A stretch of DNA of 64,000 nucleotides from an uncultured bacterium (GTDB taxonomy: Bacteria > Bacteroidota > Ignavibacteria > Kapaibacteriales > UBA2268), in assembly GCA_942492935.1 (NCBI GenBank), contig OW818654.1:3587918-3651917 (forward strand), read 5' to 3'. Both the position numbers and the translations under genes were made by a program. This document shows positions 1,754 to 48,064 of this stretch, one piece after another. Positions within the stretch are counted from its first letter, which is position 1, and every line of letters begins with the position of its first letter. A model generated the notes under the pieces. It was given only the letters and a program-made list of their open reading frames with translations, made no database searches and was not told the origin of the DNA.

Positions 1754-2295
1754 GATTTACCCATAATAAAATTAATTTTGTTTACTGCTTCCATTCTGAA
1801 AGCAAAGTATATTTACAGAAGTTTACTTCTGTTCATCATGATGTCATAATTAGACTTTTTTTTCTCTTGCTACTTTTTTTTTATTAGTAGCTGCTACCCA
1901 TTCGTAGATTATTTTTTTCCATTTCCTCCTTAAAATATGGGAAATCAGTACACTACAAAAGTAATAGTTTTGTTCATACTAAATGTTACAAACTATAAGC
2001 TATTAGTTACATGCTTTACTTATTTTCGGATTTTTTATTTATGATTGACATTTGTCATAAAATCAATATACGATATTTCAGCTGGGATTTTCAAAAGAAG
2101 AAACAATGTGATTTTTAAAATGGATTATTGAAACAAATTATTGAAAATTATTTGGATAATATTAAATTTATGTTTAATTTTCCTTTTTAATAATTGTAAT
2201 TCTCTAATTATAATTCAAACATACGTTTTGGGGAATTCTAAAATAATAGAAGATTTTTATCGTAAATAGTTCCTATACTAATTATAAAGGTTGAT

Positions 2296-3708
2296 ATGAA
2301 AAAGTATTTTTTAAATTCGCTAGTTGCAGTATTTGTTATAATACTTGCTACTTTTTATTTTACAAATAGTTCCCAGCAAGGACACGACCATAGTTCTTAT
2401 TTTAGTGAGCCGTTTGCAACTCCGCAAGACCTAACCAAAGCATGTTTGGAGTGTCATGACGATGCCGCTGTTGATTTCATGAAAACACGCCACTGGAATT
2501 GGGAAGGCGATGAATTTGAAATGAAAGGCAAAGGAAAAATGAAATTTGGCAAAAAGCAAATAATCAATAATTTTTGTATTGCCGTGCCATCCAATGAGCC
2601 AAGATGCACAAGTTGCCATCCGGGTTATGGCTGGAAAGATAAGTCTTTCGATTTCACCAAAAAAGAAAATATCGACTGCGTGGTTTGTCATGACGGCACA
2701 AAGACTTACACAAAAACTCCAACCGCCGCAGGTATGCCCGACCCAAAAGTTGATTTGCTCAAAGTGGCAAAAAGCGTTGGCAAACCTACAATCGAAAATT
2801 GCGGTGCTTGCCATTTCAATGGTGGTGGCGGAGAGGCGGTTAAGCATGGAGATTTAGATCCTGCTTTGCTCAAAGCAACCAAAGATGTAGATGTTCATAT
2901 TGGTGGAATGGGCTTCCAATGCACAAATTGCCATAAAACCGAAAAACATAAAATTTCTGGTGCCGGACATGGTTCGATTGCCGCAAATACAAATCATATT
3001 TCATGCGAAAATTGCCACAGCACAAGCAAAGCAAATATTCACAAAAATCAAGTTTTGAACAAACATACAAAATCTCTTGCTTGCGAAACTTGCCATATTC
3101 CTTCCATCGGAAGAAATATGCCTACAAAAACGTTTTGGGACTGGTCAACAGCCGGTATGAAAGTTGATGTTAAAGATGCAAATGGAAGATACACTTATTC
3201 GAAAATGAAAGGTGATTTCAAATGGGAAAGCAACGTTGTTCCAGAGTATTTATGGTATGATGGTAGCGGCGATTATTACCTTGCAGGCGATAAAATCGAT
3301 CCAAATTCTCCAATTTATTTGAATAAAATGAATGGAAATATCAGCGATAAAAATTCCAGAATCACTCCATTCAAGAAGATGGTTGGCAAGCAACCTTATG
3401 ATAAAGTTAACAATTATCTTATCGTACCAAAATTATTCGGTCCTGACGGCTACTGGAAAACTTACGACTGGACAAAAGCATCTACTCTTGGAATGAAAGA
3501 AATCAATCTTCCGTTTTCTGGTGAAGTTGGCTTTGCCGAAACATACATGTATTGGCCTCAAAATCACGCAGTTGCACCAAAAAATCAGGCAATAAAATGT
3601 AATGAATGCCATTCAAAAGGCACCCGTATGAATTGGCAAGCACTTGGCTATCCAAATGGCGACCCAATGAAAAAAGGTGGCAGAGAAAAAATTGGTTTGC
3701 TAAAGTAG
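2296..3708 (+). CDS. Octaheme c-type cytochrome (tetrathionate-reductase/Otr-like family), secreted/anchored
   Basis: Eight CxxCH heme-binding motifs (CLECH, CTSCH, CVVCH, CGACH, CTNCH, CENCH, CETCH, CNECH) in 470 aa. N-terminal hydrophobic signal/anchor. The size and motif spacing are typical of the OTR/ONR octaheme family. Confidence 0.8.
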   Translation: MKKYFLNSLVAVFVIILATFYFTNSSQQGHDHSSYFSEPFATPQDLTKACLECHDDAAVDFMKTRHWNWEGDEFEMKGKGKMKFGKKQIINNFCIAVPSNEPRCTSCHPGYGWKDKSFDFTKKENIDCVVCHDGTKTYTKTPTAAGMPDPKVDLLKVAKSVGKPTIENCGACHFNGGGGEAVKHGDLDPALLKATKDVDVHIGGMGFQCTNCHKTEKHKISGAGHGSIAANTNHISCENCHSTSKANIHKNQVLNKHTKSLACETCHIPSIGRNMPTKTFWDWSTAGMKVDVKDANGRYTYSKMKGDFKWESNVVPEYLWYDGSGDYYLAGDKIDPNSPIYLNKMNGNISDKNSRITPFKKMVGKQPYDKVNNYLIVPKLFGPDGYWKTYDWTKASTLGMKEINLPFSGEVGFAETYMYWPQNHAVAPKNQAIKCNECHSKGTRMNWQALGYPNGDPMKKGGREKIGLLK

Positions 3709-3719
3709 TAATGAAAAAA

Positions 3720-3753
3720 ATCTATCCGTTGCAAAATTAAGCAACGGATAGAT
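3720..3753 (+). terminator. Stem-loop (13-bp stem ATCTATCCGTTGC/GCAACGGATAGAT) 11 nt after cytochrome stop; probable intrinsic terminator
   Basis: Perfect inverted repeat seen in sequence, preceded by an A7 run. The downstream U-tract is weak. Confidence 0.45.
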
Positions 3754-4311
3754 TAACTTTACTGCATATTTATTGAAATATTCCTAATTTCCTCCAAAAG
3801 TAACCATTAAAAAATAAAAATAATCCTAAATCCCAAGTCGAGCGTTAAAACACCTGCAATTTGGCATTAATTATGTAATTTATATTTGTCGATATATAAT
3901 TTAATTGAAAGGCGAATTGAAGTAATTCAATAATGAAAACGCTATAACACAAGACACAACAACTTTGAACAAACGAAATCCTCCAATTTTGAGAATATTT
4001 TTGAAATGAGAACTAAAATCTATGAGTAAAACTATCAATTTTTTTAATACAAAGTCAAAAAAACAACAAAATGCTTATATTTATTCTTTGGTAATTATTA
4101 ATTTTAAAAATATTTTTTTTGAAGAATGAATATAAAATCCCCGCTTTTGTTTCCAATGATATAGTGCTTATAATCAATGTTTTATAAGCTTATACCTATT
4201 ATTACCACGCAATTCACAAATGAAGCCGATAACATTTGAATATTTATCGGCATGTTCTCTGGTGAAGAAAAAATATTATTAGAACAAAATAATTCAATAA
4301 CAAACTTGGTA

Positions 4312-6906
4312 TTAATTTCTAAAATAAAATCTTGATGACTTAGCAATACGAATATAATGAGAATTTTGAGGCATCTTTACTTCTTCTCTTTTCATATTAT
4401 TTTTTATCTTATTTCGCAATTTAACGGTTTTTATATAATCAGAATTTTCATATCTTAAAATTTTACTTCTTATTTCAAATGCTTTTTCTATGTAAAATTT
4501 TGCTTTCTCATAGGATCCGGTTTGAAAAAGTGTTTCAGCAAAATTATAATAAGATAATGCTAAATCCGGATTATATTTATCTAAAGTTTTTTCCTTTATT
4601 TTAATTGCATCTATATTGTACTTATTAGAAAAATTATATTCTTTCAATTGAGCATAAGCAAAAGCGATGTTTGTATAATTTGCTGCTATTAAAATTTGAT
4701 TTTCTTCCGAAAAAACTAGATTACTATCTAATGCTTTGAAGAAATAGTTTAAAGATTTAGTATAATTACCAATACTTAAATAGGAAATTCCAATTTCATT
4801 ATATATAGCAGCTAAATGTGTTTTTGGTCTGTCCACTGATGTGATCAATATATCTAATTCACCGAAATTATTTGTAATAGTTTCCCAATTATCAGGTAAT
4901 TTTTTATATATTTCAGCAATTTTCAAGTAAACTGAATCCAAATCTGATTTTTGTTTATCCAATACATTTTCTAATATTTTTATTTCTTCTAAATAATTAT
5001 TTATTGCTAAAGATGACGATTCTAAAATAATATATAAGGAAGCAATATCATTATACGTTTTGGCAATTTCAATATCAACATCATCATCATTATCTTCATT
5101 ATCTAACAATTTATTATATATTTCCAATGCTTTTAAATAATACTTCAAAGATTTATTATATTCCTTTAAATTTTTATAAATTAAAGCCAATTTATTAAAT
5201 GAGTGTACCAAAGTAATACTACAATTACCAAATACTTCTTGTACTATATCAATTTTTTTTAAACAATATCCTATAGCATTATCATAATAGCCCATATAAT
5301 ATAAAGAATTTACAATATTATCATAAATTTCGACTAAATCAGGATGTTGTTTATTTGAAATTTTCTTTTTGATTGCCAATATTTTTTTTTCAAATAATAT
5401 TGAATTTTCGTAATCTCCAATTAATCTATATGTTGTTGCCAAACTTTTATAAGAATCAGCTAAATCAGGATGTTTTTTCTTTAAAATTTTCTTTCTAATT
5501 TCTAATAATTTCAAATCAAAAATGATTGAATTTTGGTAATCGCCTAAGAATCTATATGTTGTTGCCAAATTTTTATAAGATTCAACTAAATCAGGATGTT
5601 TTTTCTTTAAAATTTTCTTTCTGATTTCTAATAATTTCAAATCAAAATTGATTGAATTTTGGTGATCGTCTAAGAGTCTATATATTGTTGCCAAACTATT
5701 ATATGATTCGGCTAAATCAGGGTGATATTTACTCAAAATATTCTTTCTGATTTCTAATAATTTCAAATCAAACAAAATTGAATTTTGGTAATCGCCAAAA
5801 AGTCTATAAGTTGTTGCCAGACTTTTATAAGATTCGACTAATACAAGATGTTTTTTATATAAGATTTGGTTTCTGATTTCCAATACTTTTAAATCAAAAT
5901 AAATTGAATTTTGGTAATCCCCTAAACATCTATACGAAACAACTATTTTATTGTAAACTTCAACTAATTTTGGATGACATTTATTCAAAACTTTCTCTTT
6001 TATTTGCATTGCTTTTAAAAGAAACTCAAGAGATTTTCGATAATTATTTAATTGTTCATAAAATGAGGCTATCTTTTCATAATACTCTGCTAATTTAAAA
6101 GGATGTTCAACAAACATTTTCTCCTTAGTATTAAAAAACTTTAACTCATATTCTAAACTTTTCTGATAATTGCTGGATTGAAAAAATATTTCTGCCAAAT
6201 TATTCGATAAATCTGCAATTATACAATTTTCAATATCAAAATTTTTTATAATACTTTCTGCAAAGGCAATTAAAATATTTTTTGACTGATTGTCTAAATT
6301 TGAATAATTTTCAATTTGATTTGTTATATTATTAATTAGAATGCTGCAATTCTTTGTATTCGGATGCAATTTATTTTGAATAATTTTTTGGATTAATGGA
6401 TTGATATCTAACATATTATCTTCGATTCTAAGCCAGCCCCTTTTTATTAAAGAATTCAATGTTTTTTCAAACTCATTTTTAGTTTCAATAGTTATCGAAA
6501 AATATTTATGTAAATCATTCGAGCTAATTTTGATTGAGGGTAATATTGAGAAATAAAGAAGATACTGTTTTTCAATATCAATTAAAGACCTATATTCAAG
6601 CATCTTGCAAATATATTTGAAAATCTTCGTTTCTTTACTCTTAAAAAATATTTTTTCTTCAATATCAAAGGAAGGGTTTTCAGCTTTTTCATTGCATACT
6701 TTAATAGTTAATTCATCTAACTTCATCTGAAATTTTGATTTATCCTTAATCCTTTGAAAATTGATATCATCGAATAGCAATACTATAAGATTCTCATGAT
6801 TATAAGTACTAAACTGATTGATATTTGAATTAATTTCATCAAATAAATTGCAATTATCATTATTTGAAATTAATTTTATTGTTTCACTATTATTATTTGA
6901 TTCCAT
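4312..6906 (-). CDS. Tetratricopeptide (TPR_12-like) repeat protein, 864 aa, with N-terminal non-TPR domain
   Basis: About 14 consecutive ~42-aa repeats of form HPDLxxSYxxLAxxYRxxGDYxNSIxFDLKLLEIRKKIL. The N-terminal 280 aa has an hhhhDD motif (NLIVLLFDDINF) and an LPxxxK…FP-like segment reminiscent of the NB-ARC Walker B and winged helix, but no P-loop. Confidence 0.6.
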   Translation of the reverse strand: MESNNNSETIKLISNNDNCNLFDEINSNINQFSTYNHENLIVLLFDDINFQRIKDKSKFQMKLDELTIKVCNEKAENPSFDIEEKIFFKSKETKIFKYICKMLEYRSLIDIEKQYLLYFSILPSIKISSNDLHKYFSITIETKNEFEKTLNSLIKRGWLRIEDNMLDINPLIQKIIQNKLHPNTKNCSILINNITNQIENYSNLDNQSKNILIAFAESIIKNFDIENCIIADLSNNLAEIFFQSSNYQKSLEYELKFFNTKEKMFVEHPFKLAEYYEKIASFYEQLNNYRKSLEFLLKAMQIKEKVLNKCHPKLVEVYNKIVVSYRCLGDYQNSIYFDLKVLEIRNQILYKKHLVLVESYKSLATTYRLFGDYQNSILFDLKLLEIRKNILSKYHPDLAESYNSLATIYRLLDDHQNSINFDLKLLEIRKKILKKKHPDLVESYKNLATTYRFLGDYQNSIIFDLKLLEIRKKILKKKHPDLADSYKSLATTYRLIGDYENSILFEKKILAIKKKISNKQHPDLVEIYDNIVNSLYYMGYYDNAIGYCLKKIDIVQEVFGNCSITLVHSFNKLALIYKNLKEYNKSLKYYLKALEIYNKLLDNEDNDDDVDIEIAKTYNDIASLYIILESSSLAINNYLEEIKILENVLDKQKSDLDSVYLKIAEIYKKLPDNWETITNNFGELDILITSVDRPKTHLAAIYNEIGISYLSIGNYTKSLNYFFKALDSNLVFSEENQILIAANYTNIAFAYAQLKEYNFSNKYNIDAIKIKEKTLDKYNPDLALSYYNFAETLFQTGSYEKAKFYIEKAFEIRSKILRYENSDYIKTVKLRNKIKNNMKREEVKMPQNSHYIRIAKSSRFYFRN

Positions 6907-6914
6907 AAATAACC

Positions 6915-7103
6915 TTAAAAAAAATTTACCCTATTACCCCTCTCTACCACACCATTTACCTTCAATTTGATGATTTCAATTGCTTCTAATCCGTCATTAT
7001 CAACAACTTTTTCCTCTTTACTCATTTTTTTCAATACCAGCTTGTTGAGCAGATGCAAAGCATAATATCGAAACAAGCAAATATAGCTCAATGACCAAAA
7101 CAA
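6915..7103 (-). CDS. Small hypothetical protein (possibly starting at internal Met, MSKEEK…, coord 7025)
   Basis: ORF-track only. It lies between acd and the TPR gene on the same strand, with no recognisable domain. Confidence 0.2.
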   Translation of the reverse strand: MFWSLSYICLFRYYALHLLNKLVLKKMSKEEKVVDNDGLEAIEIIKLKVNGVVERGNRVNFF

Positions 7104-7119
7104 GCAACATTTTAATTAT

Positions 7120-9177
7120 TTATTTTTCTATTCTAATTCTACCATCAACAGCAATAACAGTATCTTTTTTCCCTAATAGTGGGTTCAAATCAAGCTCTGA
7201 AATTTCAGGAGCAGCATCAAGTAAGGCACTTAACCTAACAATAATATCTGCAAATATTTCTTGATTGACTCCTTCACGTTTTCGGACGCCTTCAATTAGC
7301 TTATAAGATTTCAACGATTTTATCATAGTCAATGCCTCTACTTTACTGATTGGTGCCAATCCAAAAGACACGTCTTTCAGAACCTCTATAAAAATTCCTC
7401 CAAGTCCGCAAAGAATTATATGTCCAAAATTGTCTTCATGTTTTGCACCTACAAATAATTCAGTACCATTCAACATCGGCTGCAAAAGTACACCAATAGC
7501 TCCTTCAATTTCCATCATCTTTTCAAATTCTGCTTCTACAGTAACTGCGTGCCTTAAATTAAGTGCAACTCCTCCAACATCTGTTTTATGAATAGGTCCA
7601 ATCACTTTCATAACCACAGGAAAACCTAATTCTTCAGCAAATTTAACTGCCATTTCTTTAGTATTTGCTAATCGTTCTGGTACTCTTGGTATTCCTGCAG
7701 AATCTAATAGAATTTGTATTTTATCAGGTGAGAGATAACCACTTTCTGACTTATCTATAATTTCTCTGATTTTTACTCTGTCAATTTCTGGAAATTCATA
7801 AGTTTCTGCTGGTTTTGGAGTAGTATAAACTTTTGAAAGTGCTGCTCCTAAAGATACTTCATCTGTAAAATCAATTCTGCCAAGTGAAAGGAAATGCTGA
7901 ACTGCTTTTCCTGCTTGTACTACTGATGGTAAGCATGGATAAATTGGCTTCTTGCACCATTTCATTTTTTCGTGAAGAACATCATAAACGCCGGTTACAT
8001 CAAACATACCGGTAGTTCCAAATATTACTACAGAAGCATCAATATTATGAAATTCTCTATCTACATATTCAAGAATTGTTCCTAATTGGTCAGCACTACC
8101 AGTTGCGAGAAAGTCAATCGGATTAGAAACTGAAGAACCATGATAAAGTTGGGAAAGCAATTCTTCGGCAGCAGCACCTGATATTGGAGGTACATTCAAG
8201 CCACCTTTTGCTAAAGCATCAGTTAGCATAACACCAGAACCACCTGCATGAGTAATAACCGCTATATTCGGACCTTGCAATTCTTTGTGAAGTAGCACCC
8301 CTGCTACATAAACAAGTTCAGCCCTTGAATGACAACGAACAACTCCAGCTTTTTTAAACAATGCATCAACAGCTGCATCCGAACCAGCCAATGCTCCTGT
8401 ATGAGATGATACTGCTCTTGAACCAGCTTCAGTAGTTCCAGCTTTAATTGCTGCAATCCTACAACCTTTATTGATTAAAGAACGACAATGTTTGAGTAAT
8501 TTTTCTGGTTTTATGATTTGTTCAATATAAAATAATTTTACTCTTGCACTTGTGGCTGGGTCAAAATGTTCGTCCCAATATTCAAGCACTTCTTCTACAC
8601 CTATTTGGGCGCTATTTCCAACTGATAATATATTTGAAAATCTCAAACCTCTTGGCACAGCCATTTCCAAAATAAAGCATATTGTAGCACCTGAACCTGA
8701 AACTAAATCACAACCATTTTTTTGAGCCAATTGTGGAACTAAACCAGCAAACACACCTTTATAATTTTCATTGAGAACACCAATACAATTCGGTCCAATT
8801 AAAGAACCATTTACAGATTCTGTAATTTCAACTAATTTTGCCTCTAATTTCTTGCCTTCTGCTCCAAATTCACTAAAACCTGCTGATAATACAATAAATG
8901 CTTTTGTTCCTTTTTCTTTTGCAAGAATTTCCATAGCACCGGGTATTGCTCTTGCAGGAATTGCCAGAATTGCAAGGTCTGTATTTTCAATTTCAGAAAC
9001 GCTCTGATAACATTTCAAACCCTGAACTAAATTTTCTTTCGGATTAACAGCGGTAATTCTACCTCTGAATCCACCGTCAATGATATTTTTAATAATTTTG
9101 CCACCGGGCTTTTCTACATCATTCGAACCACCCACAATAACAATACTTTTCGGATTTAATAATTCTTTAACTAACAT
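7120..9177 (-). CDS. ADP-forming acyl-CoA synthetase (acetate--CoA ligase [ADP-forming], fused alpha/beta; NDP-forming family)
   Basis: N-terminal CoA-binding domain (IVIVGGSN…). Succinyl-CoA-synthetase-like ligase-CoA domain. C-terminal ATP-grasp (…VMKV…GGVAL…). 685 aa, typical of the fused Acd. Confidence 0.8.
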   Translation of the reverse strand: MLVKELLNPKSIVIVGGSNDVEKPGGKIIKNIIDGGFRGRITAVNPKENLVQGLKCYQSVSEIENTDLAILAIPARAIPGAMEILAKEKGTKAFIVLSAGFSEFGAEGKKLEAKLVEITESVNGSLIGPNCIGVLNENYKGVFAGLVPQLAQKNGCDLVSGSGATICFILEMAVPRGLRFSNILSVGNSAQIGVEEVLEYWDEHFDPATSARVKLFYIEQIIKPEKLLKHCRSLINKGCRIAAIKAGTTEAGSRAVSSHTGALAGSDAAVDALFKKAGVVRCHSRAELVYVAGVLLHKELQGPNIAVITHAGGSGVMLTDALAKGGLNVPPISGAAAEELLSQLYHGSSVSNPIDFLATGSADQLGTILEYVDREFHNIDASVVIFGTTGMFDVTGVYDVLHEKMKWCKKPIYPCLPSVVQAGKAVQHFLSLGRIDFTDEVSLGAALSKVYTTPKPAETYEFPEIDRVKIREIIDKSESGYLSPDKIQILLDSAGIPRVPERLANTKEMAVKFAEELGFPVVMKVIGPIHKTDVGGVALNLRHAVTVEAEFEKMMEIEGAIGVLLQPMLNGTELFVGAKHEDNFGHIILCGLGGIFIEVLKDVSFGLAPISKVEALTMIKSLKSYKLIEGVRKREGVNQEIFADIIVRLSALLDAAPEISELDLNPLLGKKDTVIAVDGRIRIEK

Positions 9178-9497
9178 AATAACATTCTATAATTTATTTC
9201 AAAAATTAATTAATTTACACAATCAAATATATTAGCAAAATTACTCAAAACCTATTAAATTACAAAGTATTATAAAGAAAAATAAAACAATATACAGATT
9301 TTAAAGCTGACCATATCTTAAAACAAATTGATAACTATTCGACCGATATAATTTTATATTTGCCAGTTAATTTCAATTAAATATAAAGTACATTTGAAAT
9401 TAATGGAAAATAATGCACCCGTAAACAATTAGTTCCAAAATAGTATGTTTATTTTGATGCTCTAATTATGTTAATAATTCCTGCATAATTTTAAATT

Positions 9498-9671
9498 ATC
9501 GCGTAGTGATTGCATTATGGTAATAAATTTCAAATACAAAATTTCATTTATCACGTAGTGATTATACCATTTAACTTATAATATTACAAAATGTTACTAA
9601 TAATTTAATCACTACGTGATAACTCATCAAATAGCAATTCATCGCTTACCATAATTTAATCACTACGCGAT
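9498..9671. promoter_or_regulatory. Four 13-bp palindromic operator-like sites ATC(A/G)C-N3-GTGAT at 9498-9510, 9550-9562, 9608-9620 and 9659-9671, nested as outer and inner inverted pairs
   Basis: Read directly from the sequence. Sites 2 and 3 are perfect palindromes. Sites 1 and 4 are reverse complements of each other. Centre-to-centre spacing is 51-58 bp. Flanks also form a 28-bp inverted repeat (9490-9518 vs 9648-9676). Confidence 0.5.
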
Positions 9672-9918
9672 AAATTAAAAACATTTAGGAAAATTATTTA
9701 TCATTTTTACCCATAGAGTAAACATAACAGTACCAAACTCTTGTCTAACTTAGTAGTCAAACATCCTATGTTTTGGAATCATCGGATGTTTTAAAATAGT
9801 TAGCTGTAATATACACATGATTTTTTCACTTAGAAACTGAGCAATTTCAAAAAAATAACAATTCTTATAATTGAAAATTTGTTATTTTTGCTTTTTTGAA
9901 ATATAAACGGTAAAAATT

Positions 9919-11629: not shown

Positions 11630-12526
11630 ATGATTTTAAAAACATTAAATACGTTTATTGAAATAGCGAAAAGTAAGCCAAAGAAAAATTTAGTTATCGC
11701 TGCTGCCGAAGACGAACCAGTATTGCAAGCTGTCAAAGCTGCATTGGTAGAAGATATTTGTACTCCATTATTAATTGGCGATACAAATAAAATCAAAAAA
11801 ATTGCTGATGAAATTGAGTTTGATTTGGCTAATATTGAAATTATTGAAGAAATAGACCCTGCAAAATCAGCACTTAAAGCTGTCAGTATGGTTAAAGAAG
11901 GTAAATCACAGATAATAATGAAAGGTCTTGTGGGAACAGCTGATTATTTAAGAGCAATTCTCAATAAAGAAGGTGGATTAAGAAAAGGTGCTTTACTATC
12001 GCACATAGGTTTTTTTGAATCGCCTTATTATCATAAATTGCTTGGCTTAACAGATGCAGCTCAAAATCTTGCTCCAGATATAAATGAAAAGGTTGCAATT
12101 ATTCAAAATTCTGTTGAATTGTATCAAAGATTAGGTGTTGCAATCCCTAAAATTGCTTTAATTGCAGCAATAGAAGGAGTAAATACAAAAATGGCTGCAA
12201 CAACAGACGCTGCTATTATAACTATGATGTATAAAAGAAAGCAAATTAAAGGGTGCATAATTGATGGGCCTCTTGCATTTGATAATGCAGTTTCAAAAGA
12301 AGCAGCTGAGCATAAAGGTATCGAAAGTGAAGTTGCTGGCGAGGCAGATTTGATTTTTGCTCCTAATATTGAAGTTGCAAATGCTCTTTATAAAAGCTTT
12401 ACATATATGGGTGGTTCGACCGTTGCGGCAATTATACTTGGAGCTTCTGTTCCTATTGTTCTTACATCAAGAGCAGATTCAGACAGAAGTAAATTGATGT
12501 CTATTGCTTTGGCGGCATCTTACTAA
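11630..12526 (+). CDS. ptb: Phosphate butyryltransferase (phosphotransacylase, PTA/PTB family)
   Basis: 298-aa PTA_PTB-fold protein immediately followed by butyrate kinase. The size is typical of Ptb rather than full-length Pta. Confidence 0.8.
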   Translation: MILKTLNTFIEIAKSKPKKNLVIAAAEDEPVLQAVKAALVEDICTPLLIGDTNKIKKIADEIEFDLANIEIIEEIDPAKSALKAVSMVKEGKSQIIMKGLVGTADYLRAILNKEGGLRKGALLSHIGFFESPYYHKLLGLTDAAQNLAPDINEKVAIIQNSVELYQRLGVAIPKIALIAAIEGVNTKMAATTDAAIITMMYKRKQIKGCIIDGPLAFDNAVSKEAAEHKGIESEVAGEADLIFAPNIEVANALYKSFTYMGGSTVAAIILGASVPIVLTSRADSDRSKLMSIALAASY

Positions 12527-12533
12527 GGAGAAA

Positions 12534-13604
12534 ATGATGAAATTACTTGCTATTAATCCGGGTTCAACATCAACAAAAATTGCTGTTTATGAAGATTTGA
12601 ATCCATTATGCGTGAAAACTCTAAGACATAGTGTTGAGGAGTTGTCCGAGTATCCAAATATAATCGACCAATATGAATTTAGAAAAAATGTTATTATTGA
12701 AACTTTAAAAAATGAATGTATTGAATTATCTGAACTTACAGCAATAGTTGGAAGAGGTGGTTTGGTTAAGCCAATTCCAGGCGGTGTTTACAAAGTTAAT
12801 GAAGAATTACTTGAAGATTTACGAAAAGGTGTAATGGGAGAGCATGCTTCAAATTTAGGTGGAATTATTGCTTATGAAATTGCAAAGGGTTTGAATATTG
12901 AAAATAATTCATTTATCGTTGACCCAGTTGTAGTTGATGAAATGGACGATATTGCACGCTATTCAGGTCGTCCAGAATTGCCGAGATTAAGTATTTTTCA
13001 CGCTTTAAATCAAAAAGCTGTTGCAAGACGATTTGCAAGAGAACATTCATTAAATTATGAAAAAATTAATATAATTGTGGTTCACCTTGGCGGTGGGATT
13101 ACTGTAGGCGCCCACAAGAATGGAAGAGTGATAGATGTTAATAATGGTCTTGATGGTGATGGACCATTTTCACCTGAAAGAACTGGCAGTTTACCTGCAG
13201 GTGCTTTAGCAAAACTATGTTTTACTGGAAAATTTCAATTACATCAGGTAAAGAAAATGATTACAGGACAAGGTGGAATTGTGGCTTATCTTGGTACTAA
13301 TAATGGCACAGAAGTAGAAAAGAGAATCGAAGAAGGCGACCAAAAAGCAAAAGATGTTTTCGAAGCAATGGCATATCAAATTTCAAAGGAAATTGGCTCA
13401 TGTGCAGCAGTTCTGTTTGGTAAATGTGATGCAATTGTCATTACAGGCGGTATGGCGCATTCAAATATATTGGTTGAATGGATTACTGAAAGAGTAAAAT
13501 TCATTGCACCTGTTTATGTTTATCCGGGTGAAGATGAAATGCAAGCATTAGCAGAAGGAGTATATTTTGGGTTGAAAGGTGAAATTCCAATTAGAGATTA
13601 TTAA
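12534..13604 (+). CDS. buk: Butyrate kinase (ASKHA superfamily acetate/butyrate kinase)
   Basis: MKLLAINPGSTSTKIAVYED N-terminus, ~357 aa. AGGAG RBS lies 7 nt upstream of ATG 12534. The track ORF start at 12504 overlaps ptb and is less likely. Confidence 0.85.
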   Translation: MMKLLAINPGSTSTKIAVYEDLNPLCVKTLRHSVEELSEYPNIIDQYEFRKNVIIETLKNECIELSELTAIVGRGGLVKPIPGGVYKVNEELLEDLRKGVMGEHASNLGGIIAYEIAKGLNIENNSFIVDPVVVDEMDDIARYSGRPELPRLSIFHALNQKAVARRFAREHSLNYEKINIIVVHLGGGITVGAHKNGRVIDVNNGLDGDGPFSPERTGSLPAGALAKLCFTGKFQLHQVKKMITGQGGIVAYLGTNNGTEVEKRIEEGDQKAKDVFEAMAYQISKEIGSCAAVLFGKCDAIVITGGMAHSNILVEWITERVKFIAPVYVYPGEDEMQALAEGVYFGLKGEIPIRDY

Positions 13605-13625
13605 TTCCAATATGCACAAAAAAAA

Positions 13626-13647
13626 AGTCCTTGAATAATCAAGGACT
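13626..13647. terminator. Bidirectional intrinsic terminator (9-bp stem AGTCCTTGA/TCAAGGACT, loop ATAA) flanked by A8 and T7 runs
   Basis: Seen in sequence. It terminates buk (+) and lies just downstream of the minus-strand tRNA-Glu. Confidence 0.8.
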
Positions 13648-13661
13648 TTTTTTGTTAGGTG

Positions 13662-13733
13662 TGATCCCAAGGGGATTCGAACCCCTACTGCCAGCGTGAA
13701 AGGCTGGTGACCTAACCGTTAGTCGATGGGACC
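13662..13733 (-). tRNA. tRNA-Glu (anticodon UUC)
   Basis: Manual cloverleaf on the reverse complement: acceptor GGTCCCA/TGGGATC. D-stem GACT/GGTC. Anticodon stem CCAGC/GCTGG with loop CTTTCAC (anticodon TTC). T-arm AGGGG-TTCGAAT-CCCCT. 72 nt, CCA not encoded. Confidence 0.8.
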
Positions 13734-13997
13734 AACTTGTAAAAGAACAAGAATTCAAAATTACGAACTTTTTGTGAATCTACCAAATAAATATTTAATT
13801 ATTTTTATGAAATGAAAAAAAAATTGCATTTTTGTTCAAATTCTGGCAAAAATGATTAATCTACAAGGTAACTTATCTATCAAATATTATAATTTACATG
13901 ATTTTCAAAATGTTTTTTGTTACTCAAAAAAAAACCGAGTAGTATAAACAAAATAAAATAGCAGTGCAGTTACTATGTTTTTTAAAAGTTATTTGTT

Positions 13998-14285
13998 TTA
14001 ATGGTAATCCCTTATATATTTTAACAAATTATCAAGTTCATCATTGTTGAAATTATCAGGAAATAATACACGAATTATTTGATTTCCTTCACTACCTCGA
14101 ATTGTATATCTTGCACGGTTAATTATTTTGAAAAATGGTTTTTCAAATACATGAATGTAGGTTAATTTACCTAATTGTGCAAGATATTCAATAAAAGCCA
14201 AATCAATTTCTTTATCAATAATTATGTCATAAACATTTCTTGCTTCAAGGCAGTCTTCTACTTTTGCAATTTGTAATATATTCAT
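13998..14285 (-). CDS. Hypothetical protein (95 aa), co-directional and 6 bp downstream of the cysteine desulfurase-like gene
   Basis: ORF-track. No recognisable motif. Confidence 0.35.
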   Translation of the reverse strand: MNILQIAKVEDCLEARNVYDIIIDKEIDLAFIEYLAQLGKLTYIHVFEKPFFKIINRARYTIRGSEGNQIIRVLFPDNFNNDELDNLLKYIRDYH

Positions 14286-14291
14286 ATAATT

Positions 14292-15428
14292 CTACAAATC
14301 TGATTCACATATTTTTTGTAATGCTGTTATAAAATAATAAATTTCTTCCTCGTTTGTAAAATATGAAGGACTTACTCTAACAGTTCCTTGAGGATAACAA
14401 CCGATTGCCATTGCTGATAATGGGCTACAATGAAGCCCTGCTCTTGCAATTATTTCAAATGAATTTTCCAATATAAAATTTACTTCTTCTGGCAAAATTC
14501 CTTTTATATTAAAAGTGAAAACTCCAAAACTATTATGTATGATGGAATGATATATATGTAATTTATCATAATGGTTTAGATTTTCATAAATGAGCATCCA
14601 AAGTCTTTTTTTCCTTGCCATAATATTTTCTAAGTCAACGCTATTTATCCAATTAATTCCTTCAGTCAATGCAATTATACCAGCATAATTTAATGTGCCA
14701 GATTCATATCTATAAGGAAATTCTTCAGGTTGAGATGTTAAAGTACCTAAAACACCCGTACCGCCATGACGAAATGGCTGAATTATATGTTCTTTTTTTA
14801 GAATTAAAACACCACTTCCAGTAATTCCGTAAAGTGATTTATGACCCGTTATTGCAACCGCATCAATATCAACTTCACTCAAATCAATACAAACTGCTCC
14901 AGCTGATTGTGAAGCGTCAAGAATGAAAAGCAAACCATTATCTTTGGCAATCTTTGAAATTGCTTTAATATCTTGTATTGTACCAGTAACATTTGAGCAA
15001 TGATTAATAACAATGGCTTTCGTATTCTTGTCTATATGATTTCTAATATCATCTGGCGAAACAAATCCTGTATTATCAGCATTAACAATTTTGGTTTCAA
15101 CATTAAATTTATTAAGATAATTAAGCGGTCTTAGTACAGAATTATGCTCAATTTGCGTAGTAATGATATTACAATTTTCAAATCCAAATCCCTTGATAGC
15201 AAGATTTAATGCTTCCGTACTACCTGAGGTTATTATTACATTATGTGTATTATTACAATTAAAAAATTCAGAAACTTTACTTCTTAATTCAGAAGTATAA
15301 CTTTTTGAACCAGTTTTATTTCCCGAGCGTGTAAAATCTACAGGTGCATTTGTTAGATATCTATTTACAGCATCAATTACTGTTTGTGGTTTTGGAAAAG
15401 TAGTAGCAGCATTATTCAAATAAATCAT
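14292..15428 (-). CDS. Class V aminotransferase-fold PLP enzyme, SufS-like cysteine desulfurase
   Basis: PLP-lysine motif ITGHKSLYGITGSGVLILKK. C-terminal RAGLHCSPL (catalytic Cys loop, SufS-type RxGxHC). 378 aa. Confidence 0.7.
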   Translation of the reverse strand: MIYLNNAATTFPKPQTVIDAVNRYLTNAPVDFTRSGNKTGSKSYTSELRSKVSEFFNCNNTHNVIITSGSTEALNLAIKGFGFENCNIITTQIEHNSVLRPLNYLNKFNVETKIVNADNTGFVSPDDIRNHIDKNTKAIVINHCSNVTGTIQDIKAISKIAKDNGLLFILDASQSAGAVCIDLSEVDIDAVAITGHKSLYGITGSGVLILKKEHIIQPFRHGGTGVLGTLTSQPEEFPYRYESGTLNYAGIIALTEGINWINSVDLENIMARKKRLWMLIYENLNHYDKLHIYHSIIHNSFGVFTFNIKGILPEEVNFILENSFEIIARAGLHCSPLSAMAIGCYPQGTVRVSPSYFTNEEEIYYFITALQKICESDL

Positions 15429-15430
15429 TG

Positions 15431-16594
15431 TTAAATTCCTATTGATTGAAATAAAAACGTAAATATAGCATCAGTTAATATTATTAAAAACACGCCGGCA
15501 ACTACTGCAGATGTGGTATATTTTCCTACAGCAGAGGCACCGCCTTTAGCTTGTAAGCCCTTGAAACATCCAATTGAAGCAATTAAATAAGCAAACACTA
15601 TACTCTTGAATACTCCCGAAAAAACATCACCAAAACCAAGCGACATTTCTAATCTGTTTGTAAAACTTGTTATAGTTATGTCAAGAGTTCCTAATGCCGC
15701 AATTAAACCACCTGCAACACCTATCAAATCACATATTATAACCAATATCGGCATTGCAACAACTACAGCTAATACGCGTGGAATTACTAAAAAATAAGTA
15801 ACATCAAATCCCATTGTAGTTAAAGCATCTACCTCATCAGATACACGCATTGTGCCTATTTCTGCTGCATAAGCAGAACCAGACCTACCTGCAACTAAAA
15901 TTGCAACGAGCATTGGAACAAGAGTTCTGGTCAGCGAAATACCAATCAAATCGGCTATAAATATATCTGCTCCAAATTGTTTCAATTGATTTGCACCCTG
16001 ATAGCCAGTAACTAATCCGATTAGAAATACTATTAAAGCACTGATTGGTAAAGCATTTACGCCCGCTGAAGTGAAAAATTCTGGAAAATCCTTCCATCTG
16101 ATTTTAGATGGTTTGAATAAACCAATTATCAACTTGTTTGTAAGTTCACCAAAGAATTCAATAATATTATATACTTCTTTAAAAAATCGGTAAGTTTTAT
16201 CGCCTACTTCTGTAATATGTACTTTTAGTGGAGAAATTTTTTCAAATTGAGTGGCAGGTAATATTGGTTTCTTTTTAAAAACATTGATGAATCTTTGTAA
16301 ATCTTCGGAAATATTCTGAAAAAATATTTCTTTTTTCTTTTTATCGCAGAACTTTTGAATTGAATTTAGAAATACAACCAAATATGTATCATAATTAGTT
16401 ACTTCGTTAAAATCAAGAATAACTTTTTTGATTTTATCATCTTTAAGAAAAGTGAAGTTTAATTTAAAATTGGCAGCATTATTTTGTGTTATTTCACCAA
16501 TTAAATATAATGTCAAAACCTCATTTTCTGTTTTAGTTTTGAATGGTTCTATATCGTTTTTCTTTTTTGACATCAAAATCTTAATTTTAACCAA
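15431..16594 (-). CDS. MlaE-family ABC transporter permease with N-terminal STAS domain
   Basis: C-terminal ~250 aa match the MlaE/YrbE permease topology and motifs (…LVAILVAGRSGSAYAAEIGTMRVSDEVDAL…). The N-terminal ~120 aa is STAS-like. Stop and start are separated by 2 nt from the downstream desulfurase gene. Confidence 0.7.
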   Translation of the reverse strand: MVKIKILMSKKKNDIEPFKTKTENEVLTLYLIGEITQNNAANFKLNFTFLKDDKIKKVILDFNEVTNYDTYLVVFLNSIQKFCDKKKKEIFFQNISEDLQRFINVFKKKPILPATQFEKISPLKVHITEVGDKTYRFFKEVYNIIEFFGELTNKLIIGLFKPSKIRWKDFPEFFTSAGVNALPISALIVFLIGLVTGYQGANQLKQFGADIFIADLIGISLTRTLVPMLVAILVAGRSGSAYAAEIGTMRVSDEVDALTTMGFDVTYFLVIPRVLAVVVAMPILVIICDLIGVAGGLIAALGTLDITITSFTNRLEMSLGFGDVFSGVFKSIVFAYLIASIGCFKGLQAKGGASAVGKYTTSAVVAGVFLIILTDAIFTFLFQSIGI

Positions 16595-25148: not shown

Positions 25149-25961
25149 CTAATAATTATTACGAAATTCATTTAGTAATTCGGGAGTTAGTTTTTCGATT
25201 TTTCTGATATTTGCAAATTTATCAAGTAAATCATCAACTGTAAACATACTTTTTTCTTTCTGAGAAATTTCTTCGATAATCTTTCCTTTATGCATCATAA
25301 TAGTTCTATTACCAAGTTCTATTGCCTGTTGCATACTATGAGTAATCATAATAGTAGTAAGGTTATCTTTTTCGATGAACATTTTTGTCAATCTGATAAG
25401 TTGTGCTGCAGATTTAGGGTCTAATGCCGCTGTATGTTCGTCAAGAAGCAATACATCTGGTTTTTGAATCACAGCCATAAGCAAAGTAATTGCCTGCCTC
25501 TGACCTCCTGAGAGAGTACCGATTACATTATTCATTCTATCTTCAAGTTGCATTTCGAGTAATGCAATTTGTTCACGATAAAAAGATTTATGTTTAGTAT
25601 CGAGTGAAATCCATAAATTTCTACTTTTTCCACGCATATAAGCGAGATGAAGATTTTCTGCAATAGTCATTCCTGGAGCTGTGCCAAGGAATGGATTCTG
25701 AAATACTCTTGCAATGTATTTTGCTCTTTTAAAATCAGGTTTTTTTGTTACGTTTTTATCTTTGACAAAAATTTCTCCTTCATCAGGTAGGAATGAACCA
25801 GAAACCGCATTCAATAATGTAGATTTACCGGAGCCATTTGTACCAATAATTGTAATAAAATCGCCTTGTTTAATTTCAAGGTCAATTCCACGAAGAGCAT
25901 AAACTTCGTCAAAAGTTCCTTCATTAAACTTTTTATGCAAATTATTTATCTTAATCATCAT
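25149..25961 (-). CDS. ABC transporter ATP-binding protein (COG1101-like)
   Basis: Walker A GTNGSGKST. Signature LSGGQRQ. Walker B LLLDEHTAALD. 4-nt overlap with the upstream permease gene. Confidence 0.85.
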   Translation of the reverse strand: MMIKINNLHKKFNEGTFDEVYALRGIDLEIKQGDFITIIGTNGSGKSTLLNAVSGSFLPDEGEIFVKDKNVTKKPDFKRAKYIARVFQNPFLGTAPGMTIAENLHLAYMRGKSRNLWISLDTKHKSFYREQIALLEMQLEDRMNNVIGTLSGGQRQAITLLMAVIQKPDVLLLDEHTAALDPKSAAQLIRLTKMFIEKDNLTTIMITHSMQQAIELGNRTIMMHKGKIIEEISQKEKSMFTVDDLLDKFANIRKIEKLTPELLNEFRNNY

Positions 25962-28795
25962 AACTTTGTCCTTATTTTATTAGCTGATTTAAGAACATCA
26001 TCAGGAATACTAATCTTCAATTTATCAGCAAGAGCTTTATTTAAATATATTCTTTTCGGCATAAAGTCATTAATTGGTATTGCTTCTGGTTTCTCGCCTT
26101 GCAATACTCTTTTGAAAATATTTGCCACTTCAGCACCAACTTCTTGATAATCGGCACCGATTGTTAAAAATGCACCAAAATCTACATCAGAAAAATTGTT
26201 GGTATAATAAAGAATACCCTTGTCCGCCAATATTTTTGCAACGGATTCTGTAGCAAGCATTACTGTAACATCTCCCGAAGTTAAGAAAATTTCAACTCCC
26301 TTGTCGGCAACTGATTTAACTGCTTCGACTACTTCATTTGGATTTGATGCATTTGCTTCAATTAGTTTGAAACCATATTGTTTAGCAAATATTCTTGCTT
26401 TTTTTGTACATGCTTCTGAGTTAGCTTCAGATGGGTTCCAAACTATTCCGATTGATTTAGCTTTGGGCGATATCTCTCTCATTAATTTTATTGTAGCTTC
26501 AATAGGTTGAAATGTTGAAATTCCTGTTATATTTTTCTGATGGTCAGTAGTAGTTTTTGCTACACCGGCAACAAATGGGTCAGTAACTGCACCGAAAATA
26601 TGCGGTATCTGTGTATTTGATTTAGCACCCAATTGCAATGCAATTGTTGAAAATGTAACTATATAATCATATTTGCTTCTAACAATATCATTTATAATAG
26701 ATTGACCAATAGAATAATCATTTTGGGCATTTTTATCATCAATTTTCAAATTATATTGTTTAATCATACCTGATTCATTTGCTCGTGCCACAAAGCCATC
26801 TCTGGCTTCTACCAACGCTTTGCTTTCGCTAAACAGAAACAAAGCAATTTTCTTTTGAGGAATAGCATTTGACAAAAATTCTGTTTTTAATGTTTTATCT
26901 AAAATTGAACCATCTTCTTGAACGATATAATTAAAATCTTTAATTGTTTGTGCATCAATTTTAATATTCATTGCTTTAGCAGTTTGAAGATTTATACCTT
27001 TAATCACATAAGTATATTTTTCAAATGGAATATCTTTTGGTTTTTCACCGTTAAATATTCTTTTCATAATATGAGCAGCTTGAATACCACTCGCAGCGTA
27101 ATCGTAACCGTAAGTAGCAAAAGCACCATCTTTTAACCTATCCACATCGGATAAAAATGATGGGATTTTCTTATACAAACTAATTTTTGCGATTGCATCA
27201 AAAGCTGAATAAACTATATTATCAGGAGTAAGCAAAAACGCTTGAATGTCTTTTTCGGCAACTGTTTGTGCTGCTTGCTGCACTTCTGCGGAAGAATTAA
27301 CAGTCATTGCTTGTAATTTAACTTTTCCTTCTTTTGCAACAGCTTTGAGCATCATTTCATAATTGAATACAGAATTTGATTGCCCTGGGTCATATATCAA
27401 ACCAGCTTTCTTAAGATTCGGTACAAATGTTTTTGCTAATTTTAATAAGCTATCTGCTTCCACCCAACCATATACACCAGTTACATTAGGTAGATGGTCT
27501 GTATCACTTTTTCCTGCACCAATAATAAATGGATTAGCAACAGTTGCAAAAATAATTGGAGTGCTTTTTAATTTATTAATAGCAGCTTGAGTTACAGGTG
27601 TGGATATTGCAATTAAAACATCGTAATCGCCTGATTCTATTTCATCAAGAATTTGATTCACAGTCGGAATATCACCGTGGGCATTTCGATAAACAATTTT
27701 TGCATTTCTACCATCAATATAACCGAGCTGTTTAATTTCTTCAAGAGCAGCCAATCTTGTTACATCAAGTAAGCCGTTTTCAGCAAACTGAACGATTGCA
27801 ATTTTATAAACTTTGCCTTGATGAACTTCTTCTTTTTCAGAGCCAAAATAATAGTAAGATAATGAAATAACAGCAATTGAAAATACAGCGAGAATAATAT
27901 ATTTCAAATTCTTACTGAATTGGTGCATTTTCTTTCTATCATTCGATATTTTTGAAACAAATAATGTAAGCAATACAAACAATGATGTCAATAATTTCAA
28001 ATCAATTGGGTTCATTCCTGCGTAAAGTGCGAATGCAATAATCAGACGATAAACTAACGAGCCGATTATTGCACTAAATACCATTACTGCAATAGATTTA
28101 CTTTTGAATACAGTTTCACCGATAATAACTGAGGCAAGTCCAACCATCAATGTACCTATACCCATTTGAATATCTGCAAATCCTTGATATTGTGCTACCA
28201 AACCACCAGCAAGTGCAACAAGTCCATTTGAAATAGCAAGACCAATTATGTATATTAAATCAACATTTACTCCTGTTGCTTTCGACATTTCAGGATTATT
28301 TCCAGTAGAACGAAGTGTTAAGCCAAAATCTGTTTTTAAAAATAAAACTGTTGCGAGCCAAGAAATTGCTGCAAATACTGATAAACAACAAAAATACCAT
28401 ATTTCTTTTGCTAAACCAGGATTAAATGGGTCGAAATAATTGAATACAGTTGGATATTGTAATAATGGTACATTTGATTTTGTCATAATATGCAAATTGA
28501 TTGAATATAATGCAATCATTACCAGAATACCTGCAAGTAATCCCGAAATTCTAAGCCAAGTATATACAATTCCTGTTGCAACTCCAGTAAGCATACCTGC
28601 AAGAAATGCTATCACTAAAGATAAAGATGGGTCTAATCCCATTGTGATTAAAATGGCAGCAACTGCCGCACCGGTTGTAAACGAACCATCAACAGTAATA
28701 TCAGCAAAATTTAAAATTTTATATGTGAGTAAAGCACCAATTGCCATTAATGAGTACAAAATACCCAAATTTAATGCACCAAACCATAGTTCCAT
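25958..28795 (-). CDS. ABC transporter permease (COG4120/BPD_transp_2-like) fused to two tandem ABC_sub_bind (COG2984-type) substrate-binding domains
   Basis: N-terminal ~310 aa polytopic membrane domain. It is followed by two ~300-aa repeats with the PF04392-like pattern (…IVQFAE…LD…G…; …IVWNPSEANS…). 945 aa. Confidence 0.6.
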   Translation of the reverse strand: MELWFGALNLGILYSLMAIGALLTYKILNFADITVDGSFTTGAAVAAILITMGLDPSLSLVIAFLAGMLTGVATGIVYTWLRISGLLAGILVMIALYSINLHIMTKSNVPLLQYPTVFNYFDPFNPGLAKEIWYFCCLSVFAAISWLATVLFLKTDFGLTLRSTGNNPEMSKATGVNVDLIYIIGLAISNGLVALAGGLVAQYQGFADIQMGIGTLMVGLASVIIGETVFKSKSIAVMVFSAIIGSLVYRLIIAFALYAGMNPIDLKLLTSLFVLLTLFVSKISNDRKKMHQFSKNLKYIILAVFSIAVISLSYYYFGSEKEEVHQGKVYKIAIVQFAENGLLDVTRLAALEEIKQLGYIDGRNAKIVYRNAHGDIPTVNQILDEIESGDYDVLIAISTPVTQAAINKLKSTPIIFATVANPFIIGAGKSDTDHLPNVTGVYGWVEADSLLKLAKTFVPNLKKAGLIYDPGQSNSVFNYEMMLKAVAKEGKVKLQAMTVNSSAEVQQAAQTVAEKDIQAFLLTPDNIVYSAFDAIAKISLYKKIPSFLSDVDRLKDGAFATYGYDYAASGIQAAHIMKRIFNGEKPKDIPFEKYTYVIKGINLQTAKAMNIKIDAQTIKDFNYIVQEDGSILDKTLKTEFLSNAIPQKKIALFLFSESKALVEARDGFVARANESGMIKQYNLKIDDKNAQNDYSIGQSIINDIVRSKYDYIVTFSTIALQLGAKSNTQIPHIFGAVTDPFVAGVAKTTTDHQKNITGISTFQPIEATIKLMREISPKAKSIGIVWNPSEANSEACTKKARIFAKQYGFKLIEANASNPNEVVEAVKSVADKGVEIFLTSGDVTVMLATESVAKILADKGILYYTNNFSDVDFGAFLTIGADYQEVGAEVANIFKRVLQGEKPEAIPINDFMPKRIYLNKALADKLKISIPDDVLKSANKIRTKL

Positions 28796-47319: not shown

Positions 47320-48064
47320 GTGAAATTTATTAGATTCAACTTTAAAATGAATATGATTAATGAAATTTATAGAGCTAATACGAGGGGCTTTGCAAAATAT
47401 GACTGGCTCGAATCCTTTCATTCATTTAGTTTCTCTTCATATTATAACCCTCAGAGAATGGGCTTCGGATTGTTAAGGGTTTTAAATGATGATTGTGTCC
47501 AACCAAAAACAGGTTTTAGTACACATCCTCATAAAAATATGGAAATTATTTCCATTCCTTTGTCTGGTACTTTGACGCATCAGGATAGTACGGACGGTTT
47601 TATGGATATTTGCGAAAACAATGTTCAAATTATGTCTGCTGGATATGGAATTGAACATTCCGAAATGAATAACTCAAGCACAGAAGAAGCTAAGTTTTTT
47701 GCAGATATGGATTTATCCTAAGCTTAAAAACATCGCTCCAAGATATGAAATGAAGTATTATAATCGTGAATTATATAAAAATAATTTTTTTCCAGTAGTT
47801 GCTCCTGATAGAGCAGATACTTCCCTTTGGATAAATCAAGATGCTGTGATTTCATTATTAGATTTAGATAAAGATAATTCTGCTGAATACAAAGTAAATT
47901 TTTTTGGTAATGGTTTATTTTTATTCGTAATTGAAGGCAAAGTTGAATATAAAGAGAATATTTTAGACAGACGTGATTCTATTTCGGTTGCAACAGTTGA
48001 ATATTTTGAGATTAAAGCACAAGAAAATTCTAAATTATTGCTGATAGAAGTTCCATTAATTTAA
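47320..48064 (+). pseudogene. Pirin-family (bicupin) gene interrupted by a +1 frameshift in a T6 homopolymer (~47695-47700)
   Basis: ORF 47320-47721 carries the pirin N-cupin (HPHKNMEIISIPLSG…SAGYGIEHSEMN). ORF 47699-48064 in the next frame carries the motif QIWIYPK and the C-terminal cupin. Deleting one T restores …EEAKFLQIWIYPK…. Confidence 0.6.

Follow-up and report, generated by a model that had tools for sequence, protein, structure and literature searches.

A gene for an octahaem cytochrome c of the octahaem tetrathionate reductase (OTR) family lies at 2296-3708 on the plus strand of a 64,000-nucleotide stretch of DNA (hereafter the window; positions 3,587,918 to 3,651,917 of the forward strand of contig OW818654.1, assembly GCA_942492935.1) from the 4.49-Mb genome of an uncultured, AT-rich bacterium of the Kapabacteria/Ignavibacteria group. 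This copy was probably acquired, or took the place of an older copy, by transfer from a relative resembling RXS1 bin.37 (GCA_024710535.1, hereafter RXS1) after the two lineages had split. The evidence for exchange between related lineages is fairly good, though short of conclusive; when the gene moved, and in which direction, is what we infer from it. A first-pass annotation of the window had suggested that the gene represents horizontally acquired respiratory capacity. Acquisition agrees with the outlying codon usage of the gene, its low divergence and its lack of synteny; novelty to the lineage does not hold, the donor being related.

The closest OTR, found on contig JANJUO010000035 of RXS1, is 91.7% identical at the amino acid level and 86% identical at the nucleotide level to that of the window. 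Amino acid identities between the window and RXS1 are 81% for HisS, 80.5% for the adjacent histidine kinase and 79% for PcrA. Synonymous divergence (dS) is 0.83 for OTR, 1.98 for HisS and 2.03 for the histidine kinase, the latter two values being saturated. Non-synonymous divergence (dN) and dS are each two- to three-fold lower in OTR at a similar dN/dS (0.056 vs 0.06-0.076 in the reference genes), and such a joint reduction is what a shorter divergence time predicts. At four-fold degenerate sites under conserved amino acids, 82/137 are identical in OTR (0.60; chance 32%) versus 123/315 in the pooled reference genes (39%; 0.36, 0.43 and 0.38 for the three genes; Fisher p=5.7e-5). A mosaic origin or partial gene conversion was rejected, since the two OTR copies diverge evenly along the gene and without indels.

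A different account of these values, doubtful but possible, is that OTR is native and vertically inherited. Codon selection and protein conservation would then have preserved it while the genome drifted to AT, and its neighbourhoods would differ by ordinary rearrangement. Consistent with this, the OTRs of the FCB group form a coherent clade, the nearest genome available has an orthologue, some 160 promoter-proximal bp are conserved as for a functional resident gene, and hallmarks of mobile elements are absent. Moreover, the frequency of C at third codon positions (C3) of OTR is the highest or near the highest in the contigs of three relatives (L039, L040 and L043), and the GroES/GroEL genes of a relative likewise combine high C3 with low G3. 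However, a control pair of relatives argues against inheritance of this kind. L042 and L043, whose HisS proteins are 79% identical and which have kept the same arrangement around OTR, show a four-fold identity of 0.42 in OTR, near saturation (chance 0.34), and an OTR/HisS divergence ratio of 0.83 as opposed to 0.44 for the window and RXS1. OTR is therefore neither under intrinsic synonymous constraint nor an unusually slow protein, and in more distant pairs it is no slower than HisS. The parallel reduction of dN and dS likewise speaks against vertical inheritance, as does the codon usage of the gene.

The GC and codon-usage comparison proposed in the first-pass annotation found the OTR gene to be compositionally foreign. 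At 39.1% its GC content is the highest of 45 window genes (mean 30.6±3.3%); the elevation that had been claimed is thus real, but the figure of 42-45% is not, as 42-44% is reached only in the 2400-3000 part of the gene. GC content at third codon positions (GC3) is 0.334 vs 0.189±0.040 in window genes (z ~3.6). A closer inspection revealed that the excess is confined to C-ending codons (C3 0.206 vs 0.085±0.02, z ~5), G3 being normal. Strand or replication bias was rejected as the source of the excess, C3 being 0.084 on plus-strand and 0.087 on minus-strand genes. A log-likelihood codon classifier, contrasting the window's other genes with 26 genes of RXS1 (the compositional reference set comprised the 46 other genes of the window only), places the window OTR at +0.073 per codon toward RXS1, compared with -0.036±0.020 for the 46 other genes (z=5.4) and a range of -0.03 to +0.08 for genuine RXS1 genes. 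The codon deviation of OTR correlates with the RXS1-versus-window axis at r=0.66 and with an expression axis, drawn from the GroES/GroEL genes of a related genome, at only r=0.26. The window OTR is enriched in GCC, ACC, AGC, GGC and ATC but not in AAC; of these, GCC, ACC and AGC are depleted in those GroES/GroEL genes. Expression-type codon bias is therefore disfavoured and with it the codon selection that vertical inheritance would call upon. The comparison with highly expressed native genes, raised in the first-pass annotation, could be made by this approximation only, and it gave a poor correlation. A second codon-usage outlier in the window is RsmH (58388-59359, plus strand; GC3 0.307, classifier +0.032 toward the RXS1 type), which is unexpected for a housekeeping gene in an mraZ-rsmH cluster.

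The RXS1 copy is typical of its own genome (classifier +0.057; GC3 z=1.45), whereas that of the window deviates from its genome by 5 sigma, so that entry into the window lineage is the simplest reading. We consider it unlikely that the RXS1 lineage instead received OTR from the window lineage, or that both received it from a third, related donor. In favour of such a route, the RXS1 OTR is itself mildly C3-rich (z=2.05), and both the window and RXS1 lack a gene linkage that is found around OTR in three other relatives (L041-L043, see below). Furthermore, the OTR of a further relative, UR.bin11, is 74% identical to that of the window though its HisS is only 58.6% identical, which is closer than HisS predicts. 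The normal codon range of the RXS1 copy at home stands against it. Under entry into the window lineage, the donor would be a related Kapabacteria/Ignavibacteria-group lineage with somewhat GC-richer codon usage, resembling RXS1, and the gene would have moved after the window and RXS1 lineages had split and without a recognisable mobile element.

The similarity of the two copies would be spurious if the 12-kb contig carrying the RXS1 OTR came not from the RXS1 metagenome-assembled genome but from a closer relative in the same sample. RXS1 is indeed a metabat bin of short contigs, and a closer relative does exist, GCA_038317825.1, whose HisS is 86% identical to that of the window. A binning artefact is nevertheless very unlikely, because the genes that flank OTR on the contig have RXS1-type codon usage: they score like other RXS1 contigs and unlike window genes, with a GC3 of ~0.25. 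They also show no synteny to the window. Against GCA_038317825.1, four-fold identity is 0.45 for HisS and 0.31 for the histidine kinase, both still below the 0.60 of OTR, and an artefact would in any case leave the codon-outlier status of the window's own copy unexplained.

Several points weigh against transfer from an RXS1-like relative. Only three reference genes could be compared between the window and RXS1, and with saturation at the synonymous sites of these genes the magnitude of the discrepancy can be given only as a lower bound. C3 of OTR is the highest, or nearly so, in most relatives' contigs, pointing to some codon preference intrinsic to the gene. The expression axis is borrowed from another genome, the window holding no highly expressed native gene, and RXS1 is a metagenome bin to which the 12-kb contig was assigned by binning, though with RXS1-like codon usage in its flanks. 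Lastly, no integrase, transposase, tRNA junction, target-site duplication or terminal inverted repeat was found at the OTR unit, nor does this unit have a plasmid relative. The sole tRNA of the window is at 13661-13733, and the repeats around the OTR gene are short and at chance level.

A search for OTR homologues gave 5248 scored matches at E<=1e-10. All those with more than 54% identity come from Ignavibacteria, Kapabacteria, Bacteroidota or Chlorobi, followed by proteobacterial and Desulfuromonadia OTRs at 38-53%. In a neighbour-joining tree the FCB-group OTRs form one clade with 100% bootstrap support, apart from proteobacterial OTRs. There the sister of the window sequence is that of RXS1 (support 100%), and both belong to a subclade of twelve supported at 98%. 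Given this clade and the restriction of close homologues to the FCB group, transfer from a distant phylum is excluded. The host falls among the same organisms: named relatives of its HisS and PcrA at 55-65% identity are Kapabacteria, Kapaibacterium, Ignavibacteria and Bacteroidota, and the window also encodes a PorE-like type IX secretion protein. The import of a respiratory capacity new to the lineage is contradicted by the origin of the near homologues; with a relative as donor, nothing foreign to the lineage was imported. As a probable case of gene exchange between relatives, OTR is small and clean; screens relying on simple taxonomic best hits would overlook it, since the donor is related to the recipient.

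By blastn, homology to the RXS1 locus (L001) covers 2135-3707 of the window at 85%, that is, from 161 bp before the ATG to the stop codon, and the flanks are unrelated. The neighbours of OTR differ in all eight contexts examined, and the window locus is not syntenic with any relative; the synteny that the first-pass annotation named as evidence to the contrary was therefore not found. The RXS1 gene is flanked by a type IX secretion PKD protein and a histidine kinase, that of UR.bin11 by HisS and DnaK, and that of L045 by yet other genes. In L041, L042 and L043 an OsmC/Ohr-family gene is found immediately upstream of OTR, on the same strand and 300-470 bp away (L041 9141-9530, L042 7244-7702, L043 7247-7705). 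These three contigs represent two OTR subclades, placed on either side of the window's subclade in the tree, and their OsmC proteins share only distant likeness with one another. The OsmC-OTR arrangement is probably ancestral, and it is a possible clue that OTR has to do with stress defence. A tblastn search with the neighbours of five relatives found no remnant of OsmC or of other neighbour genes in the window spacers; a decayed OsmC or neighbour gene in these long spacers was rejected on this result and the lack of ORFs. A broader scenario, in which OTR cassettes (promoter to stop) are swapped between related Kapabacteria/Ignavibacteria by recombination without a mobile element, displacing an OsmC/Ohr-linked ancestral copy, is speculative and quite improbable.

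In most of the loci examined it is normal for OTR to stand alone without partner genes. A different arrangement is seen in L047, where the OTR gene (8001-9413) lies 13 nt downstream of a gene for a second multihaem cytochrome of 494 aa (6504-7988), with an OmpA-like barrel and an ASH/DUF1573 type IX secretion protein encoded further upstream; such a locus is operon-like, unlike that of the window. In L043, a complete genome, a System I cluster of CcmE, CcmF and a thioredoxin-like gene (12243-15669) is found 3-6 kb downstream of OTR, indicating that the lineage uses the Ccm pathway. A further observation concerns a non-coding block of ~150 nt that is 77% identical between the window (9738-9890, plus strand) and the RXS1 locus (L001 5673-5821, minus strand) and is single-copy in both. 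Its conservation contrasts with housekeeping genes, whose synonymous sites have reached saturation between the window and RXS1. The block lies ~75 nt past the OTR stop codon in RXS1 but 6 kb away from OTR in the window, just upstream of a DUF3574 lipoprotein gene. It contains a nested palindrome (CTAACT..AAACATCC-N17-GGATGTTT..AGTTAG, 9759-9791), has no Rfam match and a fold z-score of only -1.3 to -2.0, and may act as an operator or encode a small RNA. An inversion linking the two loci through this element was rejected, as the remaining genes do not match.

The protein is assigned to its family by several matches. It scores 581.1 bits against TIGR04315 (tetrathionate reductase family octahaem c-type cytochrome; cut-off 375) over profile positions 2-440 of 440, and residues 278-441 match PF11783 (Cytochrome_cB) at E=4.4e-66 over positions 1-172 of 173. 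The Shewanella oneidensis OTR structure 1SP3 is matched at E=5e-149 across 430 residues (31-460), with no other PDB chain at E<=1e-3. The first-pass annotation had counted eight CxxCH motifs, and eight were indeed found in the 470-aa ORF, starting at residues 50, 104, 128, 169, 209, 237, 263 and 435, colinear with 1SP3 and without rearrangement. Of the 17 cysteines, Cys94 is the only one outside these motifs. It closes a GKKxxINNFC segment that runs from Lys86 (2551-2553) to Cys94 (2575-2577) on the plus strand. When aligned to 1SP3 and 16 homologues, Lys86 coincides with Lys56, the haem-2 ligand of the S. oneidensis enzyme, and Cys94 with its active-site cysteine. The second haem-binding motif, C104-T-S-C-H108 (2605-2619, plus strand), which would hold catalytic haem 2, is the same as the CTSCH (C74-H78) of 1SP3. 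Lys86, Cys94 and C104TSCH108 are invariant across the 16 homologues. In SO4144, the S. oneidensis OTR, haem 2 is attached via C74xxC77H78 and its iron is ligated by Lys56 (PMC3769277); the histidine of the motif rotates away, which allows the lysine to bind (PMC13562315). The lysine ligand and the cysteine have been named as conserved catalytic features of OTR (bioRxiv 10.1101/2023.04.20.537704).

No CxxCK, CxxxCH or CxxxxCH motif occurs in the protein, and the lack of CxxCK marks it as an OTR rather than an ONR-type (octahaem nitrite reductase) or NrfA-type enzyme. Of the OTR/ONR assignment made at first, the OTR half therefore stands, on TIGR04315, 1SP3 and the distal Lys86, and the ONR half falls. 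The alignment to Shewanella OTR that had been suggested as a check for a lysine-ligated haem points to Lys86 as the predicted ligand. The N-terminus (approximately residues 1-27, 2296-2376, plus strand; MKKYFLNSLVAVFVIILATFYFTNSS) reads in translation as MKK followed by a hydrophobic stretch of ~19 residues, ahead of the homology to 1SP3 that begins at residue 31, and is presumed to be a Sec signal peptide or signal anchor for periplasmic export. Judged by its sequence, the protein is a canonical OTR-family cytochrome. The gene adds one more member to an enzyme family that is well known, and the enzyme it encodes is ordinary.

By homology with its family, the protein would be exported to the periplasm and bind eight c-type haems covalently. 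Its predicted reaction, the reduction of a small oxidised compound of sulfur or nitrogen, would take place at haem 2, the iron of which would be held by the distal Lys86 in place of the histidine of its own CxxCH. A quinol-linked donor encoded elsewhere in the genome would supply the electrons, which would pass along the remaining seven haems. The likely function is tetrathionate reduction at haem 2, possibly with nitrite and hydroxylamine reduction too. Tetrathionate, nitrite and hydroxylamine are the substrates of the Shewanella enzyme. Two points count against a firm assignment of this role. To our knowledge, it has yet to be settled which substrate OTR uses physiologically, even in Shewanella. 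Moreover, the otr gene of Caldithrix abyssi gave no growth on tetrathionate (PMC5317091).

The first-pass annotation regarded a respiratory enzyme as noteworthy in a butyrate- and acetate-fermenting gene context. The window does encode a phosphotransbutyrylase and butyrate kinase (Ptb-Buk) and an ADP-forming acetyl-CoA synthetase. However, an organism with these genes need not be a strict fermenter, and the context is not exclusively fermentative. Isolated OTR genes are usual, and OTR has been predicted as a terminal reductase alongside fermentation pathways in an Ignavibacteriae genome (PMC7509429); the alleged metabolic oddity is therefore unsupported. What the gene adds is a predicted tetrathionate, nitrite or hydroxylamine reductase in this host, and its importance beyond annotation is little. 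The recurrent OsmC-OTR pairing in relatives is a cheap lead to the unsettled role of OTR in vivo: in the improbable cassette scenario described above, were this linkage functional, the role of the family would be the detoxification of reactive nitrogen or sulfur species, as in stress defence, rather than energy-conserving respiration.

The OTR gene at 2296-3708 forms a unit by itself, preceded by a 5′ region of its own and followed by a post-stop hairpin. As the first-pass annotation stated, it is isolated between two long AT-rich spacers, of 543 bp upstream (1753-2295, GC 23.8%) and 603 bp downstream (3709-4311, GC 25.2%). The neighbours also agree with that description (ice-binding-like and TPR genes, convergent or unrelated), and neither belongs to the OTR unit. 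Upstream, on the minus strand and truncated by the window edge, is a gene (1-1752) for an ice-binding-like protein with ASH/DUF1573 Ig repeats (PF11999 at E=1e-55, plus PF15780 and PF07610). Its ATG is at 1752, so it is divergent from OTR. Downstream, a gene for an 864-aa TPR_12/TPR_10 protein (4312-6906) is likewise on the minus strand and therefore convergent with OTR. Neither spacer contains a convincing small ORF, and no Rfam family was matched at E<=1, except for a chance match on the post-stop hairpin; non-coding RNA in these spacers was rejected accordingly. Five further spacers of 407-785 bp and similar GC occur in the window, suggesting that long AT-rich spacers are a trait of the genome rather than of the OTR gene.

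The 5′ region with the presumed promoter (2135-2295, plus strand) begins where homology to the RXS1 locus begins. Within it, a block of 36 nt (2169-2204) matches that locus at 34/36 positions, and a sigma-70-like TTAATA-16-TATAAT is found at 2187-2214, although this is a consensus match only and the -10 element is not conserved in RXS1. A perfect 14-bp stem with an 8-nt loop (3719-3754; inverted repeat I7, 100% complementary) begins 11 nt past the OTR stop codon. A terminator scan scores this hairpin on the minus strand, the side of its T-run, and it is presumed to be a transcription terminator, possibly bidirectional. RXS1 carries a different hairpin at the equivalent position. Among ORFs of >=60 aa in the window, that of OTR is the only one bearing CxxCH. 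Family scans of the window genes found no Ccm/Ccs cytochrome-biogenesis gene and no quinol-dehydrogenase partner, in line with the reported absence of partner genes nearby; for biogenesis genes, little can be concluded from this absence, as the window covers only 64 kb out of 4.49 Mb.

Other features of the window were recorded in passing. The TPR gene at 4312-6906 has the lowest GC in the window (23.0%; GC2 0.218), and the N-terminal 260 residues of its 864-aa product have no family match. The 741-bp spacer between the acetyl-CoA synthetase and DUF3574 genes contains, at 9473-9698, an inverted repeat of ~240 nt that is imperfect (72.5% self-complementary). The N-terminal domain and C-terminal cupin domain of a pirin are encoded by overlapping plus-strand ORFs one frame apart (47320-47721 and 47699-48064), which reflects either a frameshifted gene, a sequencing error or a pseudogene; GC3 of the first ORF is raised (0.30). 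Lastly, an ORF of 945 aa (25958-28795, minus strand) joins ABC-permease-like segments to a TrpX-like substrate-binding domain (E=8e-98), an unusual fusion of permease and binding protein.

Of the systems already known, the S. oneidensis OTR, SO4144 (1SP3), is closely alike. The two proteins are colinear over 430 residues, with eight CxxCH motifs in the same order and an identical CTSCH, and they share the distal lysine (the predicted ligand in the window protein), the active-site cysteine and the stand-alone gene. They differ in their hosts, one a gammaproteobacterium and the other an AT-rich member of the Kapabacteria/Ignavibacteria group. They also differ at the termini, where the N-terminal 30 residues and a basic C-terminal tail (DPMKKGGREKIGLLK) of the window protein are specific to the FCB-group clade. 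Otr genes of the same family are also predicted in Ignavibacteriae and Calditrichaeota genomes, namely in Ch128a (PMC7509429) and in Caldithrix abyssi (Cabys_2302; PMC5317091), within the same broad group of facultatively anaerobic organotrophs with a capacity to ferment. In both, the product is listed as a putative terminal reductase with tetrathionate or nitrite as substrate (PMC7509429; PMC5317091). In Ch128a, Otr clusters with a cytochrome b561 gene (PMC7509429) and in C. abyssi the gene is near an uptake hydrogenase (PMC5317091), whereas the window OTR has no redox partner within the 64 kb.

The ONR enzymes (TvNiR of Thioalkalivibrio) and the pentahaem NrfA resemble the window protein in being multihaem c-type cytochromes with a lysine-ligated catalytic haem, a ligation that is predicted for the window protein, and in their link to nitrite reduction. 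According to Atkinson et al. 2007, as cited in PMC3769277, OTR reduces nitrite and hydroxylamine in vitro. However, the lysine of ONR and NrfA is supplied by a CxxCK motif, which the window protein lacks, and their catalytic haem sits in the C-terminal module. Among these families OTR is a structural outlier (PMC9250108).

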